From positions 1 to 64,000 of the IMG/VR virus record IMGVR_UViG_3300025070_000024: a DNA stretch of 64,000 nucleotides; one strand, 5' to 3'. Source of the stretch: a virus. The position numbers and the translations under genes were made by a program. The notes beneath the pieces were generated by a model. It had not been told where the DNA came from and made no database searches. It worked only from the letters and a program-made list of their open reading frames with translations. Positions 9,001-63,134 of this stretch are shown in pieces; position 1 is the stretch's first letter; each line of letters begins with the position of its first letter.

Positions 9001-11661
9001 CTGATTGTGCAGCCTAATTAACGCAATGCGGTCTTCACTAAGCTCAAACAGACTAGCGACAACGTCTTGAATCTCAGGCACATTCAACTCTGTGTCTACC
9101 AGAGAAATAGCATCCAAAGCTTCGTGCATGTCCACGAGAGCATTGATACGCGCTACCTGTTCGTCTCTATTAAAATTATATTCTCCCTCAATAGCTCCCC
9201 TAGACATAAAGGCTTGAGTTAGGCTTTCTTCTTGCTCTCTAAGACGTTCTAACTCTTGCTCAGCTTCTTGAGTTTCTTGTTGTCTAGCTGCAGCTTTCTC
9301 TGCATTAATATTCTTAATAATCTTACGCTCAAGCTTTGTCTGCAGACCTTTTTCGATTCTGCGAATTTTCTCACGTAAAGCAGACATCTTTTCGATGTCT
9401 TGCATACTGATATTTAAATAATGCTGTATGCGCTGACCGCTAAGAATAGTGTCTGCATTAAGAGTTTTAATATTGTCGGCTAACGTCTGGGCTAATTTCT
9501 TTTCGCGTACATCGTATGCTTCTATATTGTACAATGTGTTTGCAATAGCCGTGTTTACTTCGGGGTCGCGCCCGCGATAAATCTCCTGGCTTCGTTCAAA
9601 AGCTGTCTTTGCAGCCTTCATTTGGTTTTCGTAAGTCTCGTAGACTTCAATTTTCCGTGCCAAGACCTCCTGATCAGACATAGAGTCTCCATCTTTACCT
9701 AGCAACTGCCGGTAATCGTCCGCAGTCATGTCATCTAGGATAGACTTAGCTTCTACTAAAGCATCATCATACCTGCCTGTAATAATTTTACTTGCTGCAT
9801 GACTAAATATTTGGTTTTGCTCAATGTCTTTCATGCGCTTGAAGTCTCCAGCTAAAGCTGCAGCATCCATATCGCGTTGAAGACCATTCTGCACTACACT
9901 ATTCTCTACTTCTGCGCGTAAAGTCTCAAGAACACCTCCGTCTTTTTCATGCAGATCTAAGATGCGCTGCATCTTTTCATCTCTCTCTAAAATTCCTTTT
10001 CGAACATCTTGGTAACCGCCTAAAAGCCGTAGCTTATAAACGTCTTTTTTCCCATCTTGGCTTTTTACTTTAGCTGCCCAAGGTGCTCCCATTATACCTA
10101 AGAGCATACCAATACCTACCTCTTTAAGTCCTTCTTTTGTACCGTATGAACCTTGAAAGCCAACGCTCAAGTTGTCCATAAAGTTGACAGTCTGAGTTTG
10201 GTTTTCTTCGTCGTACTTGTGCCGCAAGTAATCTTTTGTGCTTCGAGCAATTACACCTTGCAAACCTTCCTCTACAACACCTTCATACGCACCCCTACGC
10301 AAAATAGCTGTACCACGAGCTAGCTTACCCATATTAGTAGCTTTACCAAAGCCCAAAGTATTCAAGTCAAATGACCCTCTACTTTCTATATACTTAGGTA
10401 GAGCAGATTTGTCAACTCCTAGCCTCCGCGCTAACCGTGTTTGTTGGGAGGTACTCATTTTATTTACGTCCCTAAGACGTGTCCGAAACATTTGTCCCCG
10501 CATACGAGTACCAAATATTTTTGGAAACATCACCATATTACTGACTCCAACTAAAGCAAAGTTTGCCAAGAATGCCGCATTTGTATGAGGCTCATATTGC
10601 TCTCGTACAGCCTGTTCTTTTTCATCTGTAAATGATCCAGCACCGTACCGAGATTCGTACTCTCTACGCTCTTCTTCTACAGCTTCATTCAAGGTATGCC
10701 TAGCTTCCATAGAAGCCTCCATACCAGCTCCTGTAAACCACTGGCGAGCTACGCGACCATACGTATTGTAGCGCATCGCTTTATTTACCTGAGAAGATGC
10801 TGAGGTAATTCCTCCTGCAGCAGCTACTCTAGTAGCATCATCTCCTAAAGCACTAATTCCTCTCGCTACTTCATCTACATATTTACCGCTAATGACTCTG
10901 CGACCGCCATTAGCAATGTTTTTCATAATACGTGAACCCCTAGCAACTAAACCAGCTGTTGCTGCGGCTTGAATTCCTGCGGCGCCACCGCCTGTACCAA
11001 CGGTAACTGCACTCAAAATTGCTTCTGTTGCAACAGCACCAACTAAGAAAGACAGACCTCCAAAAAGATCATTGAAAATAAAATTAGCTCCTTGTTTTAT
11101 GCCTCCTTGGTCACCGCCTGTTTTTACTTCAAATGTCTTACCCCAATATTCCTCAGCACGATCAAGTGCATTGGTTACAGAGTTGTCGTAAAACTTAGAA
11201 AACTCTTGATTAGCAATTGCAGAACCCAATCCATAAAAAGTTCCGCCAATACCCTGACCTATATTTAAAACAGTGTCTCCAGCAAATTGCACAGACCCGT
11301 TAAATATCTTCTCAAATACTCCTTGAGCTTCTTGAGATTTGTCATACAGACGTGCAGGGTCATCAAAGGTCTCGCCTTGATCTAGACCGGTCACAAATGT
11401 GCGGTCCATCAAAGGGTCAAGATCCATTCCTAAATAACCATCTTGGTTATTCTGAATACGAAGACGAAGATCTTTATCTAAATACCCTAAGTCAGAAAAA
11501 TCAACTCCTTTAGCAACAACGTTTCCAGCTTGATACTCTTCCGCTCGAAGCTCTCGGTCAGTTTTTTGTACTGTACTAGGCTGACCTGTCAAAGCTTCAT
11601 CAACTTCTTCCGGCTTTGCATTCGTCAGCGGAATAAGCTTGTCGTTTAAATTTTCCTCCAT
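1..11661 (-). CDS. Giant virion-packaged DNA-dependent RNA polymerase (crAss-like vRNAP polyprotein), truncated at the window edge, at least 3887 aa
   Basis: ATG at 11661 (MEENLNDKLIPL...). The frame was open at every point I spot-checked down to base 1. It contains FGYRLPTQ...GDRIIVPKELVGRIGQDYDIDKL (DYDID at 2791-2805), matching the two-barrel RNAP DxDxD catalytic motif and its GYRxPTQ context in crAss-like vRNAPs. It is absent from the ORF track because the stop codon lies outside the window. Confidence 0.92.
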   Translation of the reverse strand, partial: MEENLNDKLIPLTNAKPEEVDEALTGQPSTVQKTDRELRAEEYQAGNVVAKGVDFSDLGYLDKDLRLRIQNNQDGYLGMDLDPLMDRTFVTGLDQGETFDDPARLYDKSQEAQGVFEKIFNGSVQFAGDTVLNIGQGIGGTFYGLGSAIANQEFSKFYDNSVTNALDRAEEYWGKTFEVKTGGDQGGIKQGANFIFNDLFGGLSFLVGAVATEAILSAVTVGTGGGAAGIQAAATAGLVARGSRIMKNIANGGRRVISGKYVDEVARGISALGDDATRVAAAGGITSASSQVNKAMRYNTYGRVARQWFTGAGMEASMEARHTLNEAVEEERREYESRYGAGSFTDEKEQAVREQYEPHTNAAFLANFALVGVSNMVMFPKIFGTRMRGQMFRTRLRDVNKMSTSQQTRLARRLGVDKSALPKYIESRGSFDLNTLGFGKATNMGKLARGTAILRRGAYEGVVEEGLQGVIARSTKDYLRHKYDEENQTQTVNFMDNLSVGFQGSYGTKEGLKEVGIGMLLGIMGAPWAAKVKSQDGKKDVYKLRLLGGYQDVRKGILERDEKMQRILDLHEKDGGVLETLRAEVENSVVQNGLQRDMDAAALAGDFKRMKDIEQNQIFSHAASKIITGRYDDALVEAKSILDDMTADDYRQLLGKDGDSMSDQEVLARKIEVYETYENQMKAAKTAFERSQEIYRGRDPEVNTAIANTLYNIEAYDVREKKLAQTLADNIKTLNADTILSGQRIQHYLNISMQDIEKMSALREKIRRIEKGLQTKLERKIIKNINAEKAAARQQETQEAEQELERLREQEESLTQAFMSRGAIEGEYNFNRDEQVARINALVDMHEALDAISLVDTELNVPEIQDVVASLFELSEDRIALIRLHNQLLEDGGLANYIASIEGVITAGAEINKALKKRAENNEDNASDINSEKFQVTDEDDDVITEDIDESINEDPNYYDDADNSKAEAEAAAEADSDSGSEFSEEDYEQAEESSDGKLTEDDSVKKFQPPPSSETETSTNSENDPAPQKEVVPEDKATPSNVTSTGKLWLDIEVEGKLKPDVTDVQKHLALNGSEGLIFRAIQINGNEVEIVVESVKGNLPTFPGGNKLMSIGVSNFENVFGEGSLALANSDAGYTFSLEIESYGSGVLMHYLDKEGKIKGGPQIVGDVLTDPKNQLIEVVYSVRDSENATTFFSALTGKDISNSSNEEIKTFLAENTKTRSGLRTGSHYAIVRDSRTQNLTFAAIKGNSIGIASSRFILRALQTLNIASGAQTKEQHQMSDQEYDHNVRQLEEHFDIDFGQEGFDLAKQINKVIRSISGVNAFKDVSEIREGQKNAKTNQIQIFPSNNKKGAQLVVYKAGIDPMQLLLDGQGNPRVDAKNKPYRVKSSWKSDTTSKEGRSDFLRLLGGIRHSSTLEQRSLLKSAGKVMSQLEFGSTLYEDGTTAQGLKVEPLESYEFIANNFLFGSYIDTRKANRGDRGPLEIIDPITGERKVYANRVKQMNIVPVGADIAPIPSSSSEQDTEGDTESTPSSTSDDSFFNTDTEGDTEYDDSELQGGAIDPSVNTGSNEDSGSAYDDIDFDDDDDGGLYSPSARTETTDEDSISFSPRGSESKAKLSPMDRAGKNMRVSGLTVKETEEAINIIVGLAARLVQVHSVTKRRNQAMTLGSLKRNVYRVLIGTNKRPSPIKQVFNQLPEADQKKIQIFLKNSNAGTSKKEVGYSLMFDQAFFLAAQRLVLGTHGLLKLGAQNLNELSEAYDGLTDLTEESYDRADLSMKEFEDKFSFTVDPKATQGVLLRRQLMAIRHTHTDSNTKTFLGLRKYIDHNTISGILNQELAGIKPNFRDVKEKLEKSVAQYPYVKDILKSMDIKTLDVKDPFYNQKLNTMLQLRQQFVVFASKDAVTYLSTKHNINQGAFGTVYLFSSNERNMGVHALQNFLSKLVTNGFYNYTKGVPEINKKKFQSFVAELDAITETEDSTKTKADLISQLFERELKMTIPAHLFTSEVPGMEDIEAELGIGNSKMDPVSAFGHLRYVMRSVATGQVSKTTNIMSLPQTMQFKKFFMLSATQGDDLIQNTSKDAAGNLRWHYVMPKLLSDKIKSIKNLTDEEIEEASVYLQKNLLYQMSGDSALMASKLKVDYYDAHSKLRSSMNPREWLKMSPGDRKLAQLILYGNDNTYIQRNGKKIMLSRFTLPTIADKETMPVIQVASASVQVNNRILLNGVSKKDMPIQDLRIEHFINTRNYYKDNIKSLVDQELTRINNIEEENFSELPTEAQRQANKIIMFPELNVLLDKHPLSSMKGSGDRAAFHKDAEVIITAALNRDMQEGLTQMHHSGIFDLYEKTGPDGTVFTDSEGNEIPRIRQEGAISTLRFFNKAHLLAKGDVTGKSSQEFIANHLGLEADNNIPAKQMFLAYHAKFVAESRAVRAHTVQAVTGDVGVYWKKDVNSTLKNMQKRLAALIAPGTVVPSITKEDIPNTPGVDSMGNTVVKRILIKDFKTDASNIAELKKLLPNSELSAYLNIETTDAAEYITPRERLLNLLAEGKISRKQFSGLLAKAESGQTLEKEEMGYFRPGKPVAAGDHGTHHFYIKSAEFVLLPSDIQGTSLMNLYDFMVATNVGRATHESAYKVGRRANTAIDIYEDDGSVRKFTVEEIEDVAENLTGKRYDQDRSTFKIQQQVPVKTKLETVHGTQISRLFDVGLQNETGFDEYGVFKAFRKDGKLRGKNLKVIYNNARGIENQAKKVAFYKKYGVGTPEYKVKMAARLREEGANRGYGMNEMAALHFDPDTQVFSVPLWGTASAQRIDSLLISIVESEVIKPRTLGFSGPIAPEIGYAFEELSKAQKSSISWVTNSEGQPIWKGNSLETTTKAKPYDEIILPWKFKADLGKFQDENGNIDINRIDSQLLDVFGYRLPTQAKASSSSFRVVGFSGPEVGDRIIVPKELVGRIGQDYDIDKLFTLMFDHELSDTEVDKPRLVKKASLSKSEVESYTDKELLNESLEAMDVEALEELISRARNTQIDVYHSSHRNTSEKVRKIIHEPIGDGYAEDLAEIVNAKGDLILDPMGVSYNDFTTADASAGATALGVFAVQGSLHAVINSNQLDIYLAQGNYMDVVEIGQSKGQSLMRKGQAISKAAWAKLGKDEILDDSFILLDKETKAGTVTKQFNRMMNHALDNQNNGLLGDLRISRETYPLWSMLTHHGYNQETIELIVSSSAIKNVVEVSKSRSAMTNGNYFELPKYLSNEVKIRRTEILQGFSTEKFDTLEGKELEVAISKASKEYTKWRRSNKVNFAVNKEWLVADFKGQELEERERQVYELGLLELFLKTINQGKRLAKFSDTLRRDSVFPAHRQELNMMIQDTTVYYYPIRGMNGLLNLPGEDSMAKSNGIAFGDWNKVLTLANASLKAKNKYGAKSKQYKESEGALNAFKQAEMERLRTQILQNTHPGQLADLVMNLKADGVFSLSEEHVDRTRMYDTALAYFQEQTQSVTKMHSWLRGLRSYHFARLAEKIDGSRNAREIRNSLLVDPDTNLASQITQAKKDFPSLEKNPFLKHLILNVDTSAHGYYTVEFTGDRNLNVTSQEILAGMHDLLTHKEKQVRELGKSVVLYSLVTGGGLGSRSFSKYVLAEYLEENGIRQELMNAVDKDSVFWNTEAHRQIVMHNHTLIPRAPEFGQDVVRTQEEDPTERTVIEIGFKNGSPEASQSDRDATLNFGFFRDKKSNRPHEIGKWLRTELVDGVPWDYYEAIQLQGIKGNFLHKEYSSYAQDEEGNSTGFTSEIEIERVKPSEENEDYSDNEGFSEADFDDAEEFDDGDPFGSGTDTNGTTTVEDNPAVEKAFGTEGDDKTTDSLITGTEAADYDNMDFDDDGDGSLFSASPRTRVVVPV

Positions 11662-11665
11662 GTGA

Positions 11666-13288
11666 TTAGTTTTGACCGGTAGCGTAAGTATAGTACAGCT
11701 TACCAATGATATTTCTCATCTCCGATTCACTCATTGCTTGAATAGGAATCTGTCGTCCATCTAAAATAGTTCGGACATTACGTCGACCTATCTTTGACTT
11801 CAAGTTGTACTTACCTTCATCTCTACCTTCTAAAATTCTTTCTACATATACTCCTGTAGGGCGATTGTCATTGGTAGACAAGACTAACCCAGGAACATCG
11901 TGAAATTGATACTGATCAACCTCATCGATATTTTTCATCCAAGTACCTAAATATGGGTCTCTCATCATACTAAGTATTGGATATGCCATTTTACGGGATT
12001 CAAAATTATTATTATTCATGCCCTGTTGAAGCATAAAGTCATCCATACTTTGATTTGCGAACGTTGCATAATCAGCAGGGGACATCGAGATATACCCTAC
12101 CTGTTCGCTGTTTTGCGTAGCATCGCCTGCCTTACTATTATTCATTGTAACCCGTACAATAGGCTCTCCATTGATAGGATTAATAGCAGGCGTTAAATGA
12201 GCACCTACAATTTGACCTTCATCTACAGTAGTACGTTGCTTAGTAGAGAACTTCGATCCCATAGGTATATACTCTAAGTTTGCATCACCTGAAATCATAT
12301 TGACTAAAGTCCTTTCTAAGCCGTCTCCAGGAGCATTAGTAAAATACGTAGGAATAGAAATGTCATCTGCATCAGATCCTTCTGTCACTATTGACTCATA
12401 GTTACCTGTAACATCAGGACTTCCCGCATCATTCAGATACGCATACCTTGGATCTTTAAGCCGAGTACTGTTAGAACCGCTATTGTATTTACCTACGCGA
12501 GACTCCCCAGCAGCTTTGAGTGCATTTTTAACTGCCTCTACAACTTTTGGTTGTTGTGTCTCGGGATCTAAGCGCAAGAAAGGTTTTTCAAACATGCTGC
12601 GAGCCATATCATTGATATGTATTCTCCCTGCCTGTGTACCTATCCACATATCATAGCCTTCATCCTCAATGAAATCTCGGACACCTGCACGAGTTTGGGT
12701 TACCTCCAGTCTCGGAGTAAACATTTTCTGCATCTCAGTGGTGTAGTTAGGACGAGCTGTAGGCACACCATTAAGTCGATTCATCTCTCCGTTAGGTCCG
12801 ATACTACTGAAGCCGTCTTTATAGTAGTCTCCTGAAAAAGTTACATTTTCTGCCCCTAACTCAGATACCATTTTGTTGTACATGGTCTGCTGCTCCTCTC
12901 CCATAGCCATCTGTTTCTTGATGTGCATATAGTTAGGATTACCAGTTATGTTTCTAGCTAAGTCTCGGACTTGTCTCACTCTATTGTGAAAGTCGTTTTT
13001 AGTACTAGCATCGGTAATGACATTTTTTACTTGGTCATACATGCCCTGCAAGTACACTCGATCATCATCACTAGCATTAGCCACGTCTTTAGCTAACATC
13101 TCTTGCATAGTGCTCAAAGAGTTTTGGCCTTCATAATAAGCTTTGTCCATTCTATTAAATAGATTGCCTATTGCTTCATTAGGAATACTTCCAAAGCTCC
13201 CAGGCTGGTATTGGTTTGCCAATACTGCGCCTAAAGCATTTGCAGGAATAAAAGACCTATTGCTTTGAGTCGTACTTTTTTTAGCCAT
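11666..13288 (-). CDS. Putative virion cargo/ejection protein, 540 aa
   Basis: Long ORF directly upstream of the vRNAP with a helical N-terminus. This position matches crAss-like ejected cargo genes. Confidence 0.6.
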   Translation of the reverse strand: MAKKSTTQSNRSFIPANALGAVLANQYQPGSFGSIPNEAIGNLFNRMDKAYYEGQNSLSTMQEMLAKDVANASDDDRVYLQGMYDQVKNVITDASTKNDFHNRVRQVRDLARNITGNPNYMHIKKQMAMGEEQQTMYNKMVSELGAENVTFSGDYYKDGFSSIGPNGEMNRLNGVPTARPNYTTEMQKMFTPRLEVTQTRAGVRDFIEDEGYDMWIGTQAGRIHINDMARSMFEKPFLRLDPETQQPKVVEAVKNALKAAGESRVGKYNSGSNSTRLKDPRYAYLNDAGSPDVTGNYESIVTEGSDADDISIPTYFTNAPGDGLERTLVNMISGDANLEYIPMGSKFSTKQRTTVDEGQIVGAHLTPAINPINGEPIVRVTMNNSKAGDATQNSEQVGYISMSPADYATFANQSMDDFMLQQGMNNNNFESRKMAYPILSMMRDPYLGTWMKNIDEVDQYQFHDVPGLVLSTNDNRPTGVYVERILEGRDEGKYNLKSKIGRRNVRTILDGRQIPIQAMSESEMRNIIGKLYYTYATGQN

Positions 13289-13292
13289 CGAT

Positions 13293-16200
13293 TCAGTTAT
13301 TTGTCTTCTCTTCCTCTAATCCCTGCATCTGGTTAGGGAGCATGGTAGCTGCATCATAGGGTCGCCCCATTGCTTGAATTTTAGCTACGTATTGAGGTGA
13401 AAGAACGTTTTGAATATAATCTTGTGCAAAGCTACCAACGTTTCTTGCACCTTGAGCAGAGTTTGTTCCCAGAAGAATTTCTTTCTGGTTGTTAAACTGA
13501 GTCACATCATTATTGTACTGGTTCCGCAAAGCATTATTTGCCGATCTAGCTTGGGTAGCTAAGTTCTCGTATTGTGCTTGCGCTCGTTGTCGCATTAGGT
13601 TGTCTGATGAACGCAATCTAGCATCTTGCTTAAATCGCTGAGCTAAAGCTGCCTGTTGATTAGACATACCTGAAGCCGTAGCAGGACTACTTTGCATTAC
13701 TGCACGAGCAGCATCACGATTGTCTTGAAGACTCTGACCTATATTACTCTGATAATTAAACTTAGGAATAACTGTAGTGCTAGGAGATGCAGGAGCCTGC
13801 ATATTCTCAATAGCCTTACGCATATCCCTTGTAGCTTTCATATTAGCAGCTAAAGGAACTATGCTCAAAGGAGTTTTAAAGTCTGGAATTTGTTCAGGGG
13901 CGGCTGGATCTGCTACTTCCCCATCTTCATACTCTGCACCAGAAGCGCCCTGCGTACCGCCAGTACCTTCACCGTCTGTACCAGTATCTCCATCACCTTG
14001 ACCACCTGTTTCTCCTTGTGCTAATTCTTCTTGTGCTAATGCTTCTTGATACTCTTCTTCAGACATTCCTGGTTCTCTTTGAACTGCCCTTCTTTCATTA
14101 GGAAACTGTCGAGCATCAAAATCAGGGAGCAGAGCTGCATTAGCTAAACCTGTGGCTAAGCCATTGTTTATTCCAAAAGCATTACCAAAAGTAGATACTG
14201 GCCTATTGCCAAAGAACTTAGGTGTTAAGACAGAGTGCGGAACATCCATTGTGCCTCCAGAAAACGGAAGAGGCTGACTACCACCAAAGTATGTAGAAGG
14301 TCTACCGACAGCACCACTTTGTCGTGCTAAGCCAGTATTTGCATTTCTTACAGACAATCCTCCCGGTTGCGCATACCGCTGCAAACCAGTTACTTGCGGA
14401 GTAAAGCCTCGTCCTGTACCCATAACACCTCCTCCAGGAATCAAAGTCTGTCCAGGTCTTAAAACACCTCCTGTCTTTCCAGCAAATTGACCTAATGCAT
14501 TACGAGACTGACCCGCACCAATACCCGTAAACACTCCTTGACCAGCACCTAAGTTATTTAAAGGTGCTTGATTAGGAAGAACTAGTCGATTACCTCCAAA
14601 CTGACCTAGCGCATTTCTAGTCTGTTGACTAGCCAAATACTCTTTAGCCTTAGGACCATACCCAGTAAACTTTGCAGCTCCTGCAACTTTAGGAGTAAAC
14701 CCACTTGATGCCGTAGCTTGAAAAGTAACTGGCTGTCCAGCTGCTGCAGTACCTGGCTTAAAAGTAAATCCCCGTCCAGGCTTACCTCCAGCTACTATAT
14801 TTCCACTAGTCCCAATCTGTTTTACATTAGGATTTGCTGCTGAAGCTACTTCTGGAATAGCTCTTTGAGAACTACCTAAAAGAGATGTCTGTGGTTTACT
14901 AGTATTCCAATTAAAAGACCTTGCTCCATCTTCACCAATAATGATTGTTCTAGGAGTCTTACCTACATTTTGTGTACCTCCTTTTACAGCAGTCCTTCGC
15001 CACTCACCCATAGTGGACTTAACTAGCTCTCTTCCTGTTACTGCCGCACCCGTCGCACCTTTTGCACCTTTAACAGCTCGTCCCCCCGGCATTAATAACG
15101 AACCACCTAGACTCTGAGTTGAGGCAGCTAATTGAGCACCGCTTTGGATTTCAGAGTCTTCGGTAGCATAAGATAAATAATCAGAGAAAGGAGTGTATCC
15201 CCCAACTCCTATATGAGATCCGCCTTTTTCATCTGTCCATTTTGTAGTTCCAGGGTTAGCAGCTACTTCAGCAGTTATTTCTTCTATTTTACGTTCATAC
15301 AGTCGTCGAGCTTGAGGGTCTTTTGGAACTGTTTCGTAGCGCATACTAGAGCCTGGAGCGACTCCGCCAATTTGCGATCCTGGTATTAGTCTTCGTTCTG
15401 TTTCAGGCTCAGTTATTCCTCTCTCCTCAGCGATACGCATGACGACGTCTTCAAAACCTCTGCCTGCTCCCGATGCTACACCTTCTCCGTAATGACCAGC
15501 AATATTTGTAAACCCTATACGCTGCGAATGACCGAAGCTGGGGTCAAAAAATCCTGGCCTATTTCCACCATCAGCATATCCTATATCGATATCGCTCATA
15601 TTACTCCCAAGACCGATATCTAACATCTGAGATGTTGTTCGCAGATCTACGCTAGTCTCGTAGGGTATACCTGAACCTCCACGAGCTGTAGCACTAGATA
15701 TGGACTTTTCAGGATTAGCTAAATCAAACTCCCCCTTCTTTACTACATAAGTATTTCCGTCTTTATTCCTAACGTTATAGTCGCCGTAAATATTTTCAGC
15801 ATAAATACTACCTGCATCTGTCTTGCCTGAATTATTTCCGCTGAACGGAACCCTATCAAAATTTAAAACCTCTATATCTTCTCCAATACTTTTCTGTAAT
15901 TCCTCAGGAGTTTTAGCTCTTGGTCCTGATGGAGAAGCTGTGTTTGGCTGCTCAGATGCAACACGCTCTGCTTGTGCTTCTGGAGACAGCATCTCAAACG
16001 GAGTAGTGTCTTCTACTGGCGTAGTAGATGTTTCAGCCTGAGCAGATGTTTCTGAAGGAGTATATTCAGATTGTGCAGAGTTGTACCACTCTTGCATCTT
16101 CGGCATGTTTTCCGTAAACAAAGTGTCTGACGGATCATACGTAACATCCGGACCATCTCCTGCAGTTTTTTTATACGTAGACGTCATTAAAGACTTTGCC

Positions 16201-16976
16201 TGCTCTTCAGTCAAGTCTTGAGTAACATCTATTCCGTATTTAGATAAAGGAGTCCCTTGCCCTTCATAATACCATCCTAATACCTGCGCCCCAATCTTTG
16301 GGTCGGTCGAGACTAGATCAGGATTTTTTACAAGCCTATCATCACCAAAAATTTTCTCACTAGCTGCGGCATACTGAGATTTACCTGTTAGTTGATTTGC
16401 ACCACGACCTCGGTATTTATAGCCATCACCAGGTTCAGTATTTCCTAAAGAATCTCGAGCGTATACGAAATCAAAAAACTTCTGGTCATCAGCCTTAAGC
16501 TTAGTTATCTCACTATCAGACATGTTCTTGAACAAACCTGTCTTCTCGAAAACTTCTTTAATTCGCTTGTTAGAAGTATTCTTATAGCTCTTCTCTTGCT
16601 GAGAAAGCTTTCCTCCGGATTCTTTATGAGTTACAGCAATAGCAGCTAATGCAGCGGAAGGACTATAGTTATAGTCTTTCATAAACATGTCCACTAAAAG
16701 ACTTTGATCGTCGGTAATAGTGTCGCCCCCGTCACCATACTTAGGCACAGTAGAACCGCCGTAATTCATTGCCGGTGTCTGAGCTTCTTTGCCTAGGCGC
16801 ATCTCTTCATTCTTTGCCTTCAACGCATTCAAAGCTTTCATACCCTTTTGCAGGTTAAGCTTAGCTGCATTCGCCATCGGACCTACAGGATAACGCGACA
16901 AAGTGTCCTCCTGCTTTTTAATAAAGCGACTGATTTCAGCTGCAATAGTTGCAGGAGTTTGTTTTTTCTTTCTCAT
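13293..16976 (-). CDS. Virion cargo protein with a GH19 chitinase/lysozyme-like peptidoglycan hydrolase domain, 1227 aa
   Basis: Motifs HKESGG, YARDSLGN, GDGYKYRGRGANQLTG and LVKNPDLV are typical of the GH19/phage lysozyme fold (~16270-16660). A long Gly-rich low-complexity region and a coiled-coil C-terminus follow. Confidence 0.8.
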   Translation of the reverse strand: MRKKKQTPATIAAEISRFIKKQEDTLSRYPVGPMANAAKLNLQKGMKALNALKAKNEEMRLGKEAQTPAMNYGGSTVPKYGDGGDTITDDQSLLVDMFMKDYNYSPSAALAAIAVTHKESGGKLSQQEKSYKNTSNKRIKEVFEKTGLFKNMSDSEITKLKADDQKFFDFVYARDSLGNTEPGDGYKYRGRGANQLTGKSQYAAASEKIFGDDRLVKNPDLVSTDPKIGAQVLGWYYEGQGTPLSKYGIDVTQDLTEEQAKSLMTSTYKKTAGDGPDVTYDPSDTLFTENMPKMQEWYNSAQSEYTPSETSAQAETSTTPVEDTTPFEMLSPEAQAERVASEQPNTASPSGPRAKTPEELQKSIGEDIEVLNFDRVPFSGNNSGKTDAGSIYAENIYGDYNVRNKDGNTYVVKKGEFDLANPEKSISSATARGGSGIPYETSVDLRTTSQMLDIGLGSNMSDIDIGYADGGNRPGFFDPSFGHSQRIGFTNIAGHYGEGVASGAGRGFEDVVMRIAEERGITEPETERRLIPGSQIGGVAPGSSMRYETVPKDPQARRLYERKIEEITAEVAANPGTTKWTDEKGGSHIGVGGYTPFSDYLSYATEDSEIQSGAQLAASTQSLGGSLLMPGGRAVKGAKGATGAAVTGRELVKSTMGEWRRTAVKGGTQNVGKTPRTIIIGEDGARSFNWNTSKPQTSLLGSSQRAIPEVASAANPNVKQIGTSGNIVAGGKPGRGFTFKPGTAAAGQPVTFQATASSGFTPKVAGAAKFTGYGPKAKEYLASQQTRNALGQFGGNRLVLPNQAPLNNLGAGQGVFTGIGAGQSRNALGQFAGKTGGVLRPGQTLIPGGGVMGTGRGFTPQVTGLQRYAQPGGLSVRNANTGLARQSGAVGRPSTYFGGSQPLPFSGGTMDVPHSVLTPKFFGNRPVSTFGNAFGINNGLATGLANAALLPDFDARQFPNERRAVQREPGMSEEEYQEALAQEELAQGETGGQGDGDTGTDGEGTGGTQGASGAEYEDGEVADPAAPEQIPDFKTPLSIVPLAANMKATRDMRKAIENMQAPASPSTTVIPKFNYQSNIGQSLQDNRDAARAVMQSSPATASGMSNQQAALAQRFKQDARLRSSDNLMRQRAQAQYENLATQARSANNALRNQYNNDVTQFNNQKEILLGTNSAQGARNVGSFAQDYIQNVLSPQYVAKIQAMGRPYDAATMLPNQMQGLEEEKTNN

Positions 16977-19900
16977 GAGATCATTTTCAAGAATTCGGAC
17001 GCATCAATCTTCATGTCTGTAGCATCGCTAAATACATATGGACTTTCAACTGGCTGACCTGTAATAGGATCAATATAACTTTCAGTAGCACCTTGTGTCA
17101 AAACACCTCCGCTTTCATGCTTCGGGCCTTGAACTTGATACATATTAGATGCTACCTGTTTGTAGTTGCCATTATTAGTAGCCATAGGAGGGTCTTGAGG
17201 ACTTGCCATCATCATCTCCCCACCTTCAGTTTCATATTGCGGTGCATTCATAGCACCCCCATAGTTAGCAACAGTGTTGTACCCTGCTCCCCGCTCGTTC
17301 ATTACTGAATTTACTTGCTGAGAATAGTCTGCCAAAGCTCCTCTAACTGCCTCACCTGTTTGCAGATTAGCAGCATTGTCTGCTTCATTTGCAAGACGAC
17401 GATCCCGACGCTGCTTTACCAACCCTGCGATACCTGCTATTGCCGCAATAGGAGCTGCCCCAGGTATACCTAGCATTAAAGCTCCTGCGCCACCCTTAAG
17501 TGCGTTGCCTGCAAAAGTTCCAAAGCCGTCATCTCCACTAGTCATAGTGTCAGCAGCCTTTCCAACTATTTGATTTACTCCAGCTGAAGCAAGATTCTTC
17601 AAGCCACCTGCCATTTTTGTGAAATCTGCTATTCCCGTGCCTCCAGGATTCAGTAATTGATTGACGAGCTGAGCACGTCCCTCTTGACCTGCTGCTCCTT
17701 TTACATTATCAAGCATAGAATTTAATCCTCCTGATTGTTGCATCTGATTAAAAATGCCTTCCAAATTTTGAGGGTTCATCGGTGCATTAGAGTTGCCTCC
17801 AGGAACTGGAGTAAACTCAGGAATATTTAGTGCAGGCATAGAAGCATTCATAGAGTTACTAGCTTGATCAGCCATAGAACCCTGAGATCCAAAAGGAGTG
17901 CTATTTCCTGCGCTTTGAGCTTGATCTAAAACTGGCTGCAACAAATCCTGAGAGTAGTTAGCAGTATTGCCTTGAGGATAGCTCAACATTCTGGCATTCA
18001 TACTTTGCTCTGGCAGAGGCTGATTGTACTCAGGATTACGAGGGCCAGCTGTATTTTGATTATTTATTGGACCACCAGGATATTGCCCAGTATCATTCAT
18101 ACTGAACAGAGGGAATGTGCTAGTGTCTTGATCTTGGAAAGGAAACCCAAAAACACCATTACCTTGAGGATCTCCAGCAGTAGGTTGTGCAGGTCGATTT
18201 TGAGCATGGTACGCCATGAGCTGCTGCTCATTACTCAACGTTGGGTTATTCATAATGAAGTCCATAGGCAAGTTCATCGCCCGTGGCTGCAAAATATGTT
18301 GCTTCAGTCCTTGACCTAAAGACATACCTGTAGGCACAGCTAAAGTTGTATCACCAAACTGCCCGTAATGCTCTGTAAGCTCTCCTACGTTAGCCGAGGT
18401 ATCTTGGCTCCCTAACATGCCTAACAGCTCTGACACAGGACTGCCATAATTTGCTTTTGGAGGCGCAACTCGTGGTTTGGTCATCGTACCTCCGAAAAAC
18501 CCTGTAGGTAGGTTTAGGTGTTTTTGAAGTGATGGTGGGATATCTAGCTTAGGAGGCGTAACTGGTGATACTGGTGGTTGGGTTTGAAACCTAAGCAACC
18601 CATCATTAGTTTTTAATCTCATAACACCTTCCATTGCACGTTTACCGGTTAATTTATCTGGATACCCCATACCTCGAACTCCTAAACCAGATCGAACTTC
18701 ATCCATATACTCTACAGGGTTTGTATATGCTCCAGCTTGGTTCTGTCCCGGGAATGGACGAATGGGACCATACCGAACTTGTAATTGCTGCAAGTTCTTT
18801 GGACTAGAAGCCGAAAGCTGTGGGACGTTTTCTAAATCGTAGAAATCAAATTGTCCCGTGTTTTTATTATAGTTGATATTCCCTCTGATATTGTCTAAGT
18901 CCAGACCGATACCTCTGTCCCGAAGCTGTCTTACTTGTTTCAGAGCTGATGCATAAGCATCTCTTGTCGGGAGTTCAGGTGCTCCTGGAACTGCTTCTTG
19001 TTTTTGCAAGTTCCTCATTATAGTTAAGTCATTCTGACTACGTAGTGGAGCTGCTACATTTGGCATATCATCAGCAATCTCGCTAGTCCTGGCTATGAAA
19101 TCATCAGTTGTTCCAGAATACCTGCTAGTCGGCAAGACAGCATTAGGATTGCTAAATTCTTGGTGAGGAAATTTTATTGCATAAGGACTATTCTTGAACT
19201 CATGTACAGTTCCAAAACCTCCCGATCCTAACTGTTCACCAAAGGGTGTTTTAGCATAAAGCTCCGCATCCAATCTATCCGCATGCCCCCAATTAAGACT
19301 ATTGTTTCTACTAACGCCTTCCGCAAGTTGATTGAATCCTGCCTCTGGATTCAAGTCCATTCTCATTGGATCAATAGGTTTATTGTAACCGAATAAAAAA
19401 TGAGGCTTGTCTCCAACATTTCTAAATCCCATAGGATTTTTCAGTGCAGGGTTTGCCTTATACAGATTTTTTACTCCAGTAACGCCTGCTTGCTTTAGAG
19501 CTTGTCTTGTTCCTGCTCCTGTTATACTTATTCCAGGTATTGCTCCAAGCGCATTTAATCCTGCACCAATAAAATTACCTTGACTTGCATCCCTTAAAGC
19601 ATTCTTCCCATAGTTTACCCAAGCAGCAGGGTTGACTAAATCATTTGCCACCTGCCCAGCTATAGTACCTTTTCCTTTGGCCTGATCGAACTCTACTTGA
19701 GAAGGCATTCCTTCTACGCTTGGGTCGAGGATTGTTCTAGCAGTGGTGATTGGGTTAGCTGCCATCTCTAAAAGAGACGGATTGTCCTCTATGATATTGC
19801 CGTCTTCATCTACCTCAAAATCCCCTTGGGATATACGAGGCATTGCATTTAATTGAGACAGTGCATCTGAAGCAGCTAAATTTTGCTGCAGTGCATCTAG

Positions 19901-20128
19901 ACCTCCCGCTCTTTCAATCTGTTGAGCGATTAGTGGGTTGTACCCAGAATTGGTATCAGAAGTAGCTGTTAACGGCTTTAGTGGGTCTGTTTCACCACCA
20001 AGTTCATATGTGTAATTTTTAGGACGCGGTTTTGCCTTAGAGCGATTTTTGCTCTTAGACTTTAAACCCAACACTACTTCAGCGAGGTTCCTTTTCTCAC
20101 ACCTATGACCGTTAAACTTTTTGCTCAT
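16973..20128 (-). CDS. Putative virion cargo protein with an internal protein-kinase-like domain, 1051 aa
   Basis: Kinase-like motifs LGSGGFGTV, YAIK, GIGLDLDNIRGN and FDFYDL. The C-terminal ETEGGE...GPKHESGGV motif is of the kind seen in crAss-like cargo proteins. Confidence 0.7.
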   Translation of the reverse strand: MSKKFNGHRCEKRNLAEVVLGLKSKSKNRSKAKPRPKNYTYELGGETDPLKPLTATSDTNSGYNPLIAQQIERAGGLDALQQNLAASDALSQLNAMPRISQGDFEVDEDGNIIEDNPSLLEMAANPITTARTILDPSVEGMPSQVEFDQAKGKGTIAGQVANDLVNPAAWVNYGKNALRDASQGNFIGAGLNALGAIPGISITGAGTRQALKQAGVTGVKNLYKANPALKNPMGFRNVGDKPHFLFGYNKPIDPMRMDLNPEAGFNQLAEGVSRNNSLNWGHADRLDAELYAKTPFGEQLGSGGFGTVHEFKNSPYAIKFPHQEFSNPNAVLPTSRYSGTTDDFIARTSEIADDMPNVAAPLRSQNDLTIMRNLQKQEAVPGAPELPTRDAYASALKQVRQLRDRGIGLDLDNIRGNINYNKNTGQFDFYDLENVPQLSASSPKNLQQLQVRYGPIRPFPGQNQAGAYTNPVEYMDEVRSGLGVRGMGYPDKLTGKRAMEGVMRLKTNDGLLRFQTQPPVSPVTPPKLDIPPSLQKHLNLPTGFFGGTMTKPRVAPPKANYGSPVSELLGMLGSQDTSANVGELTEHYGQFGDTTLAVPTGMSLGQGLKQHILQPRAMNLPMDFIMNNPTLSNEQQLMAYHAQNRPAQPTAGDPQGNGVFGFPFQDQDTSTFPLFSMNDTGQYPGGPINNQNTAGPRNPEYNQPLPEQSMNARMLSYPQGNTANYSQDLLQPVLDQAQSAGNSTPFGSQGSMADQASNSMNASMPALNIPEFTPVPGGNSNAPMNPQNLEGIFNQMQQSGGLNSMLDNVKGAAGQEGRAQLVNQLLNPGGTGIADFTKMAGGLKNLASAGVNQIVGKAADTMTSGDDGFGTFAGNALKGGAGALMLGIPGAAPIAAIAGIAGLVKQRRDRRLANEADNAANLQTGEAVRGALADYSQQVNSVMNERGAGYNTVANYGGAMNAPQYETEGGEMMMASPQDPPMATNNGNYKQVASNMYQVQGPKHESGGVLTQGATESYIDPITGQPVESPYVFSDATDMKIDASEFLKMIS

Positions 20129-20256
20129 CCACTGCAGCTTTCACAATCCTCAGGACTGTCGGTATTACATGTAAGTTCACCACTCTTCAGTTTGTCAGCT
20201 GTATCCTTTAATTTCTTAGGATCCAGAAAAGTCGCTTCTTTCCATTCTTCTTCCAT
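20125..20256 (-). CDS. 43-aa Cys-rich microprotein resembling the class Ia RNR C-terminal tail
   Basis: MEEEWKEATFLDPKKLKDTADKLKSGELTCNTDSPEDCESCSG*. Start and stop overlap the neighbouring genes (TAATG and ATGA coupling). It is below the ORF-track cutoff. Confidence 0.75.
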   Translation of the reverse strand: MEEEWKEATFLDPKKLKDTADKLKSGELTCNTDSPEDCESCSG

Positions 20257-20450
20257 TACTTCTTCTTTTTACGGGGTTTCACCACAGCCTTCTTAGGCAT
20301 TTTGCTAGTACTAGTCTTACCACCGTATCCATATTGAGTCATTACTGAGCTAGGAGTTTTACCTCCGCGTCTCATAGAGCCAAGCATTTTCATAACGACA
20401 TTTTTTGGGATTCCCCTTTTCATAAGGGTTTCAGCTTTTTTGTTTTTCAT
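20256..20450 (-). CDS. Small basic protein, 64 aa
   Basis: MKNKKAETL...RRGG...YGYGG...KPRKKKK. The ATG at 20450 lies just after the upstream stop, so it is preferred to the 20552 start in the track. Confidence 0.7.
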   Translation of the reverse strand: MKNKKAETLMKRGIPKNVVMKMLGSMRRGGKTPSSVMTQYGYGGKTSTSKMPKKAVVKPRKKKK

Positions 20451-20454
20451 GGTA

Positions 20455-20760
20455 TTAACATTTCCAACGTCTACGTGCTTGACGTATACGTGAGTTAGGG
20501 TTGTTACGAGTTTTTGCACTGCTACGTTTGAGTTGTCCCAAAGAGCGAGCACAATATGATTTACGACGTCCTGCAGCCTTACTACCTTTTTTCACTTTTC
20601 CAGTTACAGCAGTTTTTAATTTACTTCCTGGATTTGCTTTACGATATGCCCGGACACCTTTTTTGGTCATCCCTGCACCAGATTTAGTAGGTCTGTAGTT
20701 CGCAGATTTTCCTTTCGTTGTTTTACGAATAGGAGTAGACTTTTTTCGTTTAGCAGGCAT
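20455..20760 (-). CDS. Small, highly basic phage protein (DUF6321-like)
   Basis: GAGMTKKGVRAYRKANPGSKLKTAVT...RRKSYCARS...SRIRQARRRWKC is a motif pattern widespread in aquatic phages. Confidence 0.7.
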   Translation of the reverse strand: MPAKRKKSTPIRKTTKGKSANYRPTKSGAGMTKKGVRAYRKANPGSKLKTAVTGKVKKGSKAAGRRKSYCARSLGQLKRSSAKTRNNPNSRIRQARRRWKC

Positions 20761-57695: not shown

Positions 57696-58160
57696 ATGAA
57701 AACTATTAAAGAAGATATCTTTTTAGGATGGACAGCAGGTGAACTAGCTATAACATACAAAAGGGCAGCGCTAGATGGACCAACCATCAAAGCACCTGAG
57801 CATACTATCAAACTACTACGTAGATGCTACTCAGATACTATTGAGATACGTGAGTCAGCTATATGCATAGGTATATCCCGCGCTAATAGAATACGCTCAG
57901 TATTTATAGTAGGGGAAGGCGGTACAGCCGGATGCGTGATTGACCCTAAGCTAGTATTCAGCAGACTGCTGCTAGAAAACTGCTCTGCCTTTATCTTATC
58001 TCACAACCATCCTAGTGGCAACACAAACCCTAGTATGGCAGATAAGAAATTGACACGTGATTTTCGAGCTTGTGGTAAAGTACTCGACATACCCTTGCTC
58101 GACCACATAATAGTCACCGACAACTCACACTTCTCGTTTGCTACACACGATATGCTATAA
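57696..58160 (+). CDS. radC: RadC-like JAB-domain protein
   Basis: E...GGTAGCVIDP...SHNHPSGNTNPSMAD...LLDHIIV. Confidence 0.9.
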   Translation: MKTIKEDIFLGWTAGELAITYKRAALDGPTIKAPEHTIKLLRRCYSDTIEIRESAICIGISRANRIRSVFIVGEGGTAGCVIDPKLVFSRLLLENCSAFILSHNHPSGNTNPSMADKKLTRDFRACGKVLDIPLLDHIIVTDNSHFSFATHDML

Positions 58161-62889: not shown

Positions 62890-63134
62890 AAACCCGCATA
62901 AGAGTACCTAATAAAGAGTACTACTTGATGAATCAGCAACAGCGTATTAATTACTGGGCTGATTATTTGAACCGATTAACTAGTTACATGGCTATTGAGG
63001 AGAGCCTATCTCCCCTACAAATTCAACGGATTTCTAACGAGATTCAACACATAACCCAATACCTTAAAGTTTTAAGTAATGCCCCAGCACGTACCCATAA
63101 AAGCGGGACCGACCTCTCGCCAAGCAATGTTTGA
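62877..63134 (+). CDS. Hypothetical protein
   Basis: ORF overlapping the polA stop. Confidence 0.45.
   Translation: MEQVKTRIRVPNKEYYLMNQQQRINYWADYLNRLTSYMAIEESLSPLQIQRISNEIQHITQYLKVLSNAPARTHKSGTDLSPSNV

Follow-up and report, generated by a model that had tools for sequence, protein, structure and literature searches.

The Gly-Gly peptides described here are genuine and conserved, and they mark the seams at which exchangeable modules of a marine crAss-like phage's cargo proteins adjoin. They occur in three proteins encoded in the window, a 64,000-nucleotide stretch of the IMG/VR record IMGVR_UViG_3300025070_000024 (Table 1). Our best explanation, which we hold tentatively, is that the motif is a hinge-and-dock element retained at the seams between the modules of crAss-like cargo (ejection) proteins. 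A preliminary description of this DNA had listed seven such strings, and all seven were found in the ORF translations, on the minus strand and at the places it described.

Table 1. Features of the cargo region; positions are those of the window.
Feature	Residues	Position	Strand	Basis or remark
1227-aa predicted cargo protein		13293..16976	-	N-terminal helical hairpin, seam, GH19-like lysozyme cassette, Gly-rich middle, conserved C-terminal region
N-terminal helical hairpin	1-62 of 1227-aa protein	16791..16976	-	Conserved in 11/11 rows
MNYGG	70-74 of 1227-aa protein	16755-16769	-	M70, G73 and G74 invariant in 11/11 rows
KYGDGG, second motif	79-84 of 1227-aa protein	16725-16742	-	Poorly conserved
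GH19-like peptidoglycan hydrolase cassette	about 100-250 of 1227-aa protein	16227..16679	-	Pfam, PHROG and PDB matches
Conserved C-terminal region	1020-1227 of 1227-aa protein	13296..13919	-	Match to L004
1051-aa predicted cargo protein, relative of crAss001 C1 (gp45)		16973..20128	-	ORF; family of 81 representatives; hhalign to gp45 domain
N-terminal basic module	1-40 of 1051-aa protein	20009..20128	-	Conserved in relatives
YELGG, seam after N-terminal module	41-45 of 1051-aa protein	19994-20008	-	
Variable cassette ("kinase-containing" block)	161-504 of 1051-aa protein	18617..19648	-	Match to L003 protein
FFGG	544-547 of 1051-aa protein	18488-18499	-	Not conserved
Gly/Ala-rich hydrophobic segment	879-904 of 1051-aa protein	17417..17494	-	Conserved block in family alignment
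ANYGG, seam directly before C-terminal domain	954-958 of 1051-aa protein	17255-17269	-	
C-terminal domain	end of 1051-aa protein	16976..17242	-	81 family matches; AF2 model; hhalign to gp45
64-aa basic protein with two motifs (MRRGG, YGYGG)		20256..20450	-	ORF; L001 copy
MRRGG	26-30 of 64-aa protein	20361-20375	-	
YGYGG	40-44 of 64-aa protein	20319-20333	-	
101-aa basic DUF6321 protein, constant neighbour of small motif proteins		20455..20760	-	Pfam DUF6321 7.1e-11

Taken alone, the window does not show the motif beyond chance, since its three proteins hold 6 [FYWM]xxGG sites (3.07 ± 1.74 in shuffles), a count of at least 6 is reached by 45/500 shuffles, and GG dipeptides are close to expectation in both large proteins (21 vs 17.1 in the 1227-aa protein and 13 vs 12.4 in the 1051-aa protein). 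Across 79 proteins of the 1051-aa protein's family, however, the pattern occurs 178 times outside the C-terminal domain against 59.2 ± 7.4 expected, and none of 200 shuffles reached this count (maximum 76).

The family proteins also allowed the motif to be refined. The spacing [FYWM]xxGG gives a z of 16, while [FYWM]xGG is close to expectation (72 vs 60.4, z 1.5), and at position -3 from GG, Met, Phe and Tyr are enriched 2.5-3x. The motif had been proposed as aromatic/basic-x-x-GG; the aromatic part stands, but basic residues are not enriched at -3 ([KR]xxGG 39 vs 51.2 expected), although Lys is enriched 2.0x one position earlier, at -4. After GG, Pro occupies +1 at 74/524 sites (2.5x background), Thr is enriched 3.0x at +2 and Gly 2.0x at +3, so that positions on either side of GG (-3, -1, +1, +2 and +3) are informative. 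In sum, the motif is an invariant Gly-Gly with Met, Phe or Tyr two or three positions ahead of it and, in many cases, Pro, Thr/Val/Ile and Gly after it.

The 1051-aa protein runs from an N-terminal basic module through a seam, variable cassettes, a Gly-rich hydrophobic segment and a second seam to the C-terminal domain. Its two ends are conserved and its middle is variable; family members are between 109 and 1123 aa long and differ in their middles. Over residues 1-42, L004 and L007 share 59% identity with the N-terminal module, which is a free-standing 54-aa ORF in L005/L006. In 24/24 proteins with this module, GG lies at residues 36-55 (the YELGG junction) with F/Y/W/M/L at -1 to -3, and 25/55 other proteins also carry a motif 10-55 residues from a basic N-terminus. 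At the ANYGG position, GG falls at most 12 residues before the C-terminal domain in 78/78 family proteins, a count that takes in those with enough sequence upstream of the domain. ANYGG itself falls in low-confidence residues of the AF2 model (pLDDT below 50), just before the folded domain (pLDDT 80-95 from residue 21 of the modelled piece). Not every site is of this kind; the orthologue P0001/L001, although 90% identical, lacks the stretch bearing FFGG (1017 vs 1051 aa).

Between the seams, residues 161-504 are 41% identical to residues 713-1088 of an otherwise unrelated 1403-aa L003 protein, which also bears an HExxH motif. This cassette had been called kinase-containing; it has no Pfam kinase match even at E<=1, and its Gly-loop resembles that of a kinase by eye only. 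The segment at residues 879-904 is probably membrane-inserting; its sole PDB profile match, to a comparable Gly-rich part of a tape measure protein, has an E of 0.22, and gp45 of crAss001 has a predicted transmembrane helix at 136-158 according to the available text of PMC10172136.

The 1227-aa protein repeats this arrangement. Its modelled N-terminal hairpin (helices 8-28 and 33-62, pLDDT 80-85) is followed by a pLDDT<50 stretch (residues 61-98) that holds both MNYGG and KYGDGG and leads into the lysozyme-like part. In the 11 orthologue rows (about 9 distinct), this linker varies except for the M, G and G of MNYGG. Since the Gly codons differ among 9 orthologue rows (GGC GGT, GGA GGA, GGG GGG, GGA GGG), selection acts on the protein rather than the DNA. 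Only the window and L001 have KYGDGG; the second motif of L091 and of L100 is looser. The GH19-like cassette scores just under the Pfam GH19 cut-off (25.1 vs 25.5 bits) and matches PHROG endolysins (1.4e-19) and PDB endolysins (down to 4.2e-8). GH19 is present in 8/11 rows and other domains take its place in three, while residues 1020-1227 retain 40% identity to the end of an 847-aa orthologue (L004). That the cassettes are swappable, as had been suggested, is thus borne out by both large proteins, and by the L003 block and a gut phage insertion described below.

The association of the motif with module boundaries also holds across relatives: 13.3% of 1591 internal alignment end-points lie at most 5 residues from a motif, compared with 7.1% of random positions, and the motif is kept in lineages that are only 40-50% identical elsewhere. 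Of the sites at domain boundaries in the preliminary description, ANYGG, YELGG and MNYGG are conserved there, whereas FFGG and KYGDGG are not.

Similar motifs occur in small proteins. The 57-, 101- and 64-aa proteins of the window, all strongly basic, lie just upstream of the cargo genes, and both MRRGG and YGYGG recur in an 80%-identical L001 copy of the 64-aa protein, with like motifs in 75/76-aa basic proteins of L092-L095. The DUF6321 protein is 84-94% identical across 80 loci (those kept of 590 confirmed IMG/VR stretches). In 29 of these 80 loci, in other phages, tandem arrays of 5-8 motifs make up very basic, Lys-rich proteins of 57-183 aa, and 28 of the 29 array genes lie at most 1.6 kb from the DUF6321 gene, whose product is equally basic.

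The link to a solved virion comes from crAss001. Profile comparison shows the C-terminal domain, which ends the protein in nearly all of its 81 matches, to be homologous to the portal-bound domain of crAss001 gp45 (hhalign, 79 vs 7 sequences: 95.7%, E 9.7e-9, 65 columns); the homology covers the second half of the domain only. No BLAST-level similarity links the 1051-aa protein to gp45, and the domain model has no fold match in the PDB, the gp45 structure included. The C-terminus of the 1227-aa protein is unrelated to that of gp45 (hhalign 1.2%). From synteny with crAss001 and this domain homology, we predict that the 1051- and 1227-aa genes are cargo genes.

According to the available text of Bayfield et al. 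(2023, PMC10172136), which does not mention the GG motif, residues 425-552 of gp45 are bound to the portal wing in the crAss001 virion. The PDB chain follows the numbering of the translation, and F426-G427-G428 therefore lies inside the modelled stretch. Because this stretch includes A425-F426-G427-G428, the chain is continuous across G428-W429; the seam is thus uncut after GG in the solved virion, which excludes a cut after G428 only. The seam stands directly before the portal-bound domain in 7/7 gut gp45 homologues, which also all have GG at the column of residues 209-210. In gp45 itself, GG is frequent (21 vs 13.3 expected), with an aromatic residue or Met at -1 to -4 in 12 cases (4.65 expected; 12 reached in 7/2000 shuffles). 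Its tblastn matches in other crAss phages begin at residues 422, 425, 427, 369-372 and 254/264, adjoining its GG sites at 427, 373 and 263, and the gp45 homologue of the gut phage cr85_1 carries an additional inserted module flanked exactly by two GG seams.

We propose that the motif stays in the mature protein, where its hydrophobic residue would serve as a peg beside a tight turn at Gly-Gly, closing one module and opening the next. Beyond the last seam, the C-terminal domain would dock the protein on the portal within the head and thereby load the 1051-aa protein into the capsid; the seams would allow insertion or exchange of cassettes, lysozyme-like or other, with loading and ejection undisturbed. 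We infer that the seams of the marine phage are likewise uncut, that its C-terminal domain docks on its portal, and that the peg touches a partner (the portal, tail ring, capsid wall or DNA). The information on both sides of GG and the frequent Pro at +1 fit an uncut motif, and the tandem arrays fit a multivalent contact motif.

Cleavage, as the preliminary description had it, seems to us unlikely. On this view, a protease of the phage or host would act at the seams of the cargo and small basic proteins, either while the head matures or once they have been injected, and would free cassettes and short basic peptides, as in adenovirus and T4 core proteins. An invariant short motif in disordered linkers would suit such a protease, and where it follows a basic leader near the N-terminus it resembles a processing site with a targeting leader; the tandem arrays could be precursors of basic peptides of ~12 residues. 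The ordered pieces of gp45 also start at or just after motifs: one (214-245) begins four residues after GG 209-210, and a cut just before A425 would equally explain why order starts there. However, the chain is unbroken across G428-W429, and Pro at +1, enriched here, is not accepted by most endopeptidases. The motif's likeness to the adenovirus cleavage consensus is offset by a different spacing. A search of the genome for a protease, which had been suggested, found no prohead, C39, CE-clan or S49-type protease, nor any other head-maturation protease family, among the scanned ORFs (80.8-kb genome), and no peptidase domain was detected by Pfam in the 1051- or 1227-aa protein. The fused, RNAP-containing giant cargo protein has no motif in 5253 residues, although it has a single HExxH, at residue 3972, which matches Tox-MPTase4 below threshold (E 0.11, 12.9 bits). 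In its available text, the Drobysheva preprint considers the fused polyprotein "likely cleaved" and reports a Zincin-like protease domain in gp65 orthologues. We found no cleavage data for any relative in the literature; the stems "cleav" and "proteoly" are absent from both crAss001 papers, and the gel bands listed for crAss001 in the available text (150, 270 and >300 kDa) would fit uncut large cargo proteins.

Still less probable is that the motif chiefly contacts or condenses nucleic acid, with the small proteins forming a "histone-like" core and the cargo riding with the DNA. Lys-rich stretches, a hydrophobic residue and a flexible Gly-Gly would bind packaged DNA; the basic tandem-array proteins beside DUF6321, the basic proteins upstream of the cargo genes and the Lys at -4 all favour this. 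However, many seams of the large proteins lie in non-basic surroundings (such as the Q/P/A-rich linker of the 1227-aa orthologues), [KR] is not enriched at -3, no match to a known DNA-binding family was found, and the sole crAss001 seam seen is in the portal-bound stretch, not on DNA.

The seams might also be scars or hot-spots of module shuffling, where recombination swaps cassettes and the motif is kept by descent rather than function. Cassettes do change between relatives exactly at seams, and inserted modules bear GG at each end (e.g. cr85_1 and DAC15). Yet a five-residue motif, two of whose positions are free, gives too short a sequence for homologous recombination, nucleotide identity at seams does not exceed that of the flanking codons in 9 rows, and the motif persists between otherwise diverged lineages. 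With different Gly codons in different orthologues, the constraint is on the protein, and we regard this explanation as very unlikely. Chance (Gly-rich linkers yielding GG near aromatic or basic residues, picked out by a loose pattern) would account for the near-expected counts in the window and for the unconserved FFGG and KYGDGG, but is hardly credible, being contradicted for 5/7 sites by the conservation at three seams (78/78, 24/24 and 11/11) and the shuffle counts.

The motif and the proteins that carry it can be compared with several known systems. The closest is crAss001 C1 (gp45; PDB 7QOG, 7QOI, 7QOJ, 7QOL, 8CKB), whose gene follows the muzzle gene, as here. Both proteins have a basic N-terminus, a Gly-rich hydrophobic segment, a string of modules, hydrophobic-x-x-GG seams and a homologous domain with S-H-E and Y-V-F-S-D signatures. 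However, this domain ends the 1051-aa protein while gp45 runs on for ~290 residues, and the 1227-aa protein, the second large cargo protein of the marine phage, has no counterpart in crAss001. Polyvalent proteins of phages and conjugative elements are likewise multidomain and virion-delivered, with shuffled enzymatic domains, and zincin-like metallopeptidase domains are predicted to process them (Iyer et al., 2017, PMC5512222, available text); the words "glycine" and "linker" are absent from that text, which describes no junction motif. The HExxH motifs of the giant protein and of the L003 relative of the variable cassette recall these proteins, unlike the 1051- and 1227-aa proteins with no detectable peptidase domain.

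Two viral proteases offer further parallels. Adenain cuts adenovirus precursor and core proteins after the second glycine of (M/I/L)-X-G-G-X. As here, a hydrophobic residue precedes Gly-Gly in DNA-packed proteins, small and very basic ones included. Here, however, that residue lies one place further from GG (z 1.5 at the adenain spacing vs z 16), Pro is frequent after GG, the search for a CE-clan protease found none and cleavage is putative. In T4, the prohead protease, whose gene adjoins the head genes, removes a capsid-targeting sequence from internal proteins; this tag occurs only at the N-terminus, and its last residue is Glu. Both systems place a short shared peptide on diverse head-packed, injected proteins, with swappable enzymes behind a common tag, although the motif here is internal and repeated and no such protease was found. 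Loading in the marine phage is better explained by the C-terminal domain than by a T4-like tag.

The phage is an uncultured crAss-like one with a circular genome of 80.8 kb, most of which the window covers (the contig has 80,916 bases, the first 50 of which are repeated at base 80,765). Pfam recognised its capsid protein (Crass_capsid, 2.2e-84) and tail-ring proteins (CrAss_Ring_1, 2.2e-48; Ring_2, 7.7e-33; Ring_3_4, 6.7e-8), and PHROGs the terminase, portal and capsid; gut crAss phages show 33-36% identity to the capsid protein. With a 1383-aa muzzle-like protein related to gp44 of Bacteroides phage crAss001 (E 8e-6), the virion gene module of Crassvirales is present. All virion genes are on the minus strand. 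Terminase, portal, capsid and tail genes come first, followed by the muzzle-like protein, small proteins of 68, 57, 101 (DUF6321), 64 and 43 aa, the 1051-aa, 1227-aa and 540-aa proteins, and finally an ORF that leaves the window and reaches 5253 aa once the circle is closed. In crAss001, the genes for cargo proteins gp45 and gp46 occupy the equivalent place, along with those for the virion RNA polymerase proteins. The giant protein, mostly unannotated, is this polymerase block in fused form; acidic strings resembling D-x-D-x-D occur in it (one of them at residue 2968), and HExxH occurs once, at residue 3972.

Several other features of the genome and its relatives are included in the table. A RadC-like JAB protein (1.5e-30) and a DUF932 protein (3.3e-9) both lie among the early/replication genes, a pairing typical of mobile-element anti-restriction regions. 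One 322-aa protein combines a GGACT domain (gamma-glutamyl cyclotransferase-like, 6.7e-18) with a weak glutamine amidotransferase match, which is odd for a phage. The short ORF between the 64-aa and 1051-aa genes, kept in three related loci (L004, L095 and L098), encodes an acidic product with three Cys towards the C-terminus. For the portal, homologues with ~50% identity (P0198 and P0201) come from a Prolixibacteraceae MAG and from a contig of 1.6 Mb that bears the name Zeaxanthinibacter, which suggests prophage-like or host-linked copies in Bacteroidota.

Positions of features in the window, the closed genome and related IMG/VR loci (L numbers)
Feature	Position	Strand	Remark
5253-aa giant ORF	window 1-11706, continuing at genome 76709-80764	-	joined across contig ends
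C-terminal domain of 1051-aa protein	window 16976-17242	-	
43-aa ORF	window 20125-20256	-	stop overlaps 1051-aa start; under usual ORF length cut-off; unannotated
101-aa DUF6321 protein	window 20455-20760	-	
RadC-like JAB protein	window 57696-58160	+	
DUF932 protein	window 63079-63837	+	
322-aa GGACT protein	L008 9548-10516 = genome 72547-73515	+	
1403-aa protein	L003 5865-10076	+	unrelated viral contig
712-aa protein	L004 3731-5869	+	also in L096, L098
346-aa protein	L004 5866-6906	+	also in L096, L098
Basic proteins of 74 and 101 aa	L092 ~8084-8610	+	in L092-L095

The preliminary description picked out seven short strings ending in GG in the 1051-aa, 1227-aa and 64-aa proteins and took them for a shared head-packaging or protease-cleavage signal. 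All seven were found where it placed them. Within the window, counts are near those expected from glycine content, so that frequency there speaks roughly against such a signal: GG occurs 21 times vs 17.1 expected in the 1227-aa protein and 13 vs 12.4 in the 1051-aa protein, while the three proteins together contain 6 [FYWM]xxGG motifs vs 3.07 +/- 1.74 after shuffling (6 or more in 45/500 shuffles), and the remaining 62 ORFs contain 15 vs 12.25 expected. Across the protein family, however, the excess is clear. A HMMER search with the last 112 residues of the 1051-aa protein gave 81 representatives at E<=0.001 (39 at 1e-10), 109-1123 aa long and with the match almost always at the extreme C-terminus; we excluded P0048 and P0079, repeat proteins with scattered short matches, and kept 79. 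Outside the C-terminal domain (33,881 residues), these contain 178 [FYWM]xxGG motifs vs 59.2 +/- 7.4 expected (200 shuffles, maximum 76; z 16), a statistic that overstates independence since the sequences are related. The same proteins contain 72 [FYWM]xGG vs 60.4 expected (z 1.5) and 39 [KR]xxGG vs 51.2.

The motif is also clearly conserved in homologues. GG occurs within 12 residues before the C-terminal domain in all 78 proteins with at least 12 upstream residues, and in all 24 of the 79 proteins with a window-type N-terminal module it falls between residues 36 and 55 and follows a hydrophobic residue placed at -1 to -3. Among the other 55, 25 combine a basic N-terminus with a motif in the first 30 residues. 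Upstream of GG, the enriched residues are P at -5 (2.2x), K at -4 (2.0x), M/F/Y at -3 (2.5-3.0x) and Y/H/I/V/T at -1 (~2-2.5x); downstream, they are P at +1 (2.5x, 74/524), T at +2 (3.0x) and G at +3 (2.0x). The observation is real, and the motif can be refined to hydrophobic-x-x-G-G, in many cases with P-T/V-G after it. When the proteins are aligned in pairs, 211/1591 internal end-points (13.3%) lie no more than 5 residues from a motif, vs 7.1% of random positions. Middles and post-seam domains vary among relatives, which supports the earlier proposal of swappable cassettes. One of the original strings, FFGG, lies in a stretch missing from a 90%-identical orthologue. Literature searches found neither the motif nor cargo cleavage described.

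In the 1227-aa protein, we aligned 11 orthologue rows (~9 distinct) from syntenic IMG/VR loci; a search for related loci with the narrower alignment A3 gave 11. M70, G73 and G74 of the MNYGG seam are invariant in all rows, the linker is Q/P/A-rich with many indels, and the domain after it is GH19-like in 8 rows and of another kind in 3. The Gly codons of MNYGG vary between the 9 rows printed, so the constraint acts on the protein. KYGDGG is weakly conserved among these orthologues. In an AlphaFold model of residues 1-300 (mean pLDDT 56.6), a helical hairpin is predicted at residues 8-62 (pLDDT 80-85), followed by residues 61-98 with both motifs (pLDDT <50) and then a lysozyme-like part. The cassette matches the GH19/phage endolysin family, with 25.1 bits in Pfam (slightly below the cut-off of 25.5), 1.4e-19 against the PHROG endolysin family phrog_181 and 4.2e-8 to 1.1e-6 against endolysins in the PDB. 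Nothing besides GH19 was found by phmmer for either large protein in the PDB, and a homologue search with residues 1-100 of the 1227-aa protein returned just 3 close relatives.

For the C-terminal domain of the 1051-aa protein, the model shows a small, confidently predicted beta fold, with pLDDT 80-95 from residue 21 of the modelled piece onwards, whereas the ANYGG seam before it has pLDDT <50. E29, E32, H65 and S95 of the 112-residue piece are invariant. Foldseek and VIA-align found no PDB match to the model at E<=0.001 (best Z 2.8), the best ESM Atlas score (0.81) fell on viral clusters without a name, and the profile of alignment A1 matched a Gly-rich tape-measure stretch alone in the PDB (E 0.22). 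The whole 1051-aa protein had no tblastn match among 50,697 phage records, and neither it nor the 64-aa protein matched a family in Pfam or PHROGs. As for the putative kinase block, Gly-loop-like and Lys-containing strings were spotted by eye only; Pfam gave no family for the whole protein at E<=0.01, and neither residues 230-520 nor the short relative P0069 matched a kinase family there at E<=1. The variable cassette recurs, at 41% identity over ~340 residues, in the 1403-aa protein of L003. With an HExxH close to the C-terminus and several x-x-GG strings rich in K/Q, that protein resembles the polyvalent proteins described by Iyer 2017.

Profile comparison by hhalign links this marine domain (79 sequences) to the portal-bound domain of gp45 (residues 425-552; 7 sequences; 95.7%, E 9.7e-9, 65 columns), the match covering the second half of the domain only; a single-profile HMM gives a weak score (12.8 bits). 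Gene order is also that of the C1 (gp45) cargo family: the 1051-aa gene follows the muzzle-like 1383-aa gene and five small genes, while in crAss001 gp45 comes after gp44. Because the C-terminal domain is homologous to that of gp45, we infer that the 1051-aa protein is a C1-type cargo protein whose last domain would dock on the portal. Seams of the same kind are present in gp45 itself. In an alignment of seven gut homologues from named records, GG is found at the column of gp45 residues 209-210 in 7/7, following a hydrophobic stretch rich in Gly and a charged helix. The domain with the S-H-E and Y-V-F-S signatures has a GG seam before it, directly so in cr116_1, and in cr85_1 and DAC15 additional modules sit between two GG seams. 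According to Bayfield et al., gp45 residues 214-245 line the tail barrel. We dropped the idea of a split gp45, with its C-terminus in the 1227-aa protein (hhalign 1.2%).

The solved structure bears directly on cleavage. The gp45 chain in the PDB has 842 residues and aligns with the translation from 1 to 842; with identical numbering, the modelled stretch 425-552 begins A-F-G-G-W. The chain is unbroken across the bond after GG, which excludes the originally proposed cut at this seam, although a cut could still fall before residue 425. Tentatively, we prefer a reading in which the seams would remain uncut and work as hinge-and-dock elements. Cleavage at the seams, which we rank second and consider unlikely, would fit a motif that looks like a processing site and follows basic leaders, but Pro is enriched after GG and the hydrophobic spacing is unlike that of adenain sites. 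In favour of cleavage, the lone HExxH of the giant protein comes with a match, below threshold, to a family of metallopeptidase toxins (E 0.11). Against it, this fused protein, called a likely polyprotein in the Drobysheva preprint, has 0 motifs and fewer GG than expected (19 vs 24.5). No maturation protease family was found among the scanned ORFs; Pfam scans of the ORFs of the entire 80.8-kb genome gave no peptidase family (a divergent protease could escape them), neither the interval from portal to capsid nor any other part of the genome showed a prohead protease family, and the genome has no C39 peptidase or ABC transporter. The stems 'cleav' and 'proteoly' are absent from both crAss001 papers, and section 7 of Shkoporov 2018 mentions no more than 'moderate' size discrepancies on the gel. 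The RadC-like JAB protein was dropped as a GG-specific protease, lying among early/replication genes on the opposite strand; Iyer 2017 argues that RadC is without a groove for a ubiquitin-like tail and likelier to be nucleic-acid directed.

The motif is also found in small basic proteins encoded near DUF6321. Of 590 confirmed IMG/VR stretches, 80 loci were retained, and in these the basic DUF6321 protein of 101 aa shows 84-94% identity, which is unusually high for so small a protein from phages. These loci (L010-L089) represent phage types other than crAss-like; we dropped them as syntenic crAss relatives, as they are without the N-terminal modules or C-terminal domain. In PHROGs, several larger families end in a DUF6321 domain, and DUF6321 is unmentioned in the literature searched. 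In 29/80 loci there is a Lys-rich ORF of at most 200 aa with 3-8 motifs, often in exact ~12-residue tandem units, and in 28 of these 29 it lies within 1.6 kb of the DUF6321 gene. Of the plus-strand ORFs of at least 200 aa in these loci, 289/348 have no motif; two larger motif-rich proteins have a tape-measure match at their C-terminal ends and are encoded in the structural module. The 64-aa protein of the window and the 75/76-aa proteins of four related loci (L092-L095) belong to the class of small Lys-rich proteins with the motif. Beside the latter are two more very basic proteins with Cys and Tyr, so the small basic set differs between relatives. In L004, L096 and L098, two genes missing from the window lie between the muzzle and DUF6321 genes. 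One product is Cys-rich and 712 aa long, the other has 346 aa, and each begins with what resembles a signal peptide. By eye, the 712-aa protein seems to end in a type IX secretion sorting domain; this would suggest a host among Bacteroidota.

Perhaps these proteins share a process resembling adenovirus core maturation. Across tailed phages of aquatic Bacteroidota, crAss-like and others, M/Y/F-x-x-G-G would be cut on ejection proteins and on DNA-associated basic proteins, the latter being the tandem arrays beside the strongly conserved DUF6321 gene. The protease, so far unrecognised, might be the giant protein's HExxH segment, and the cuts would free ~12-residue basic peptides and enzyme cassettes. 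We hold this to be still less probable than cleavage at the seams as such. If true for gp45, no single chain would run through the portal; the tail-barrel piece and the portal-bound piece would be distinct fragments.

Few phages known are as abundant as crassviruses, and the seams may matter for the loading, storage and ejection of their cargo proteins, which amount to megadaltons. The seam motif extends from the marine relatives to the structurally solved gp45, with a shared, putative portal-docking domain behind the last seam. Hundreds of further viral contigs have small basic proteins built from it beside DUF6321, a hint of a broader and as yet undescribed grammar of head-packed phage proteins. 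Beyond the preliminary description, our analysis adds the domain homology to gp45, the reading of one seam in a solved structure, the giant fused protein without the motif and the tandem-array proteins. Motif and domain together supply residues to mutate and places for cutting, tagging or swapping cassettes, and the motif allows cargo processing to be tested directly. If the seams are only hinges, they offer no new mechanism but a rule that helps to annotate cargo proteins.

The seams can be compared with several known systems. Adenain (CE clan) cuts at a consensus of hydrophobic P4, Gly P2 and Gly P1; the corresponding spacing, [FYWM]xGG, is not enriched here, although a subset with GGG fits both spacings. 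In T4, an N-terminal leader is cut by a prohead protease of the head module, whereas here the motif is internal and repeated. Double-glycine leaders of C39 exporters are likewise N-terminal and end in GG, unlike these mostly internal motifs. Polyvalent proteins carry several unrelated effector domains in one virion-delivered polypeptide, often with a zincin-like peptidase (Iyer 2017). In the 1051-aa and 1227-aa proteins the cassettes are shuffled, no more than one enzymatic domain per protein is recognised (GH19), and no peptidase domain was found.
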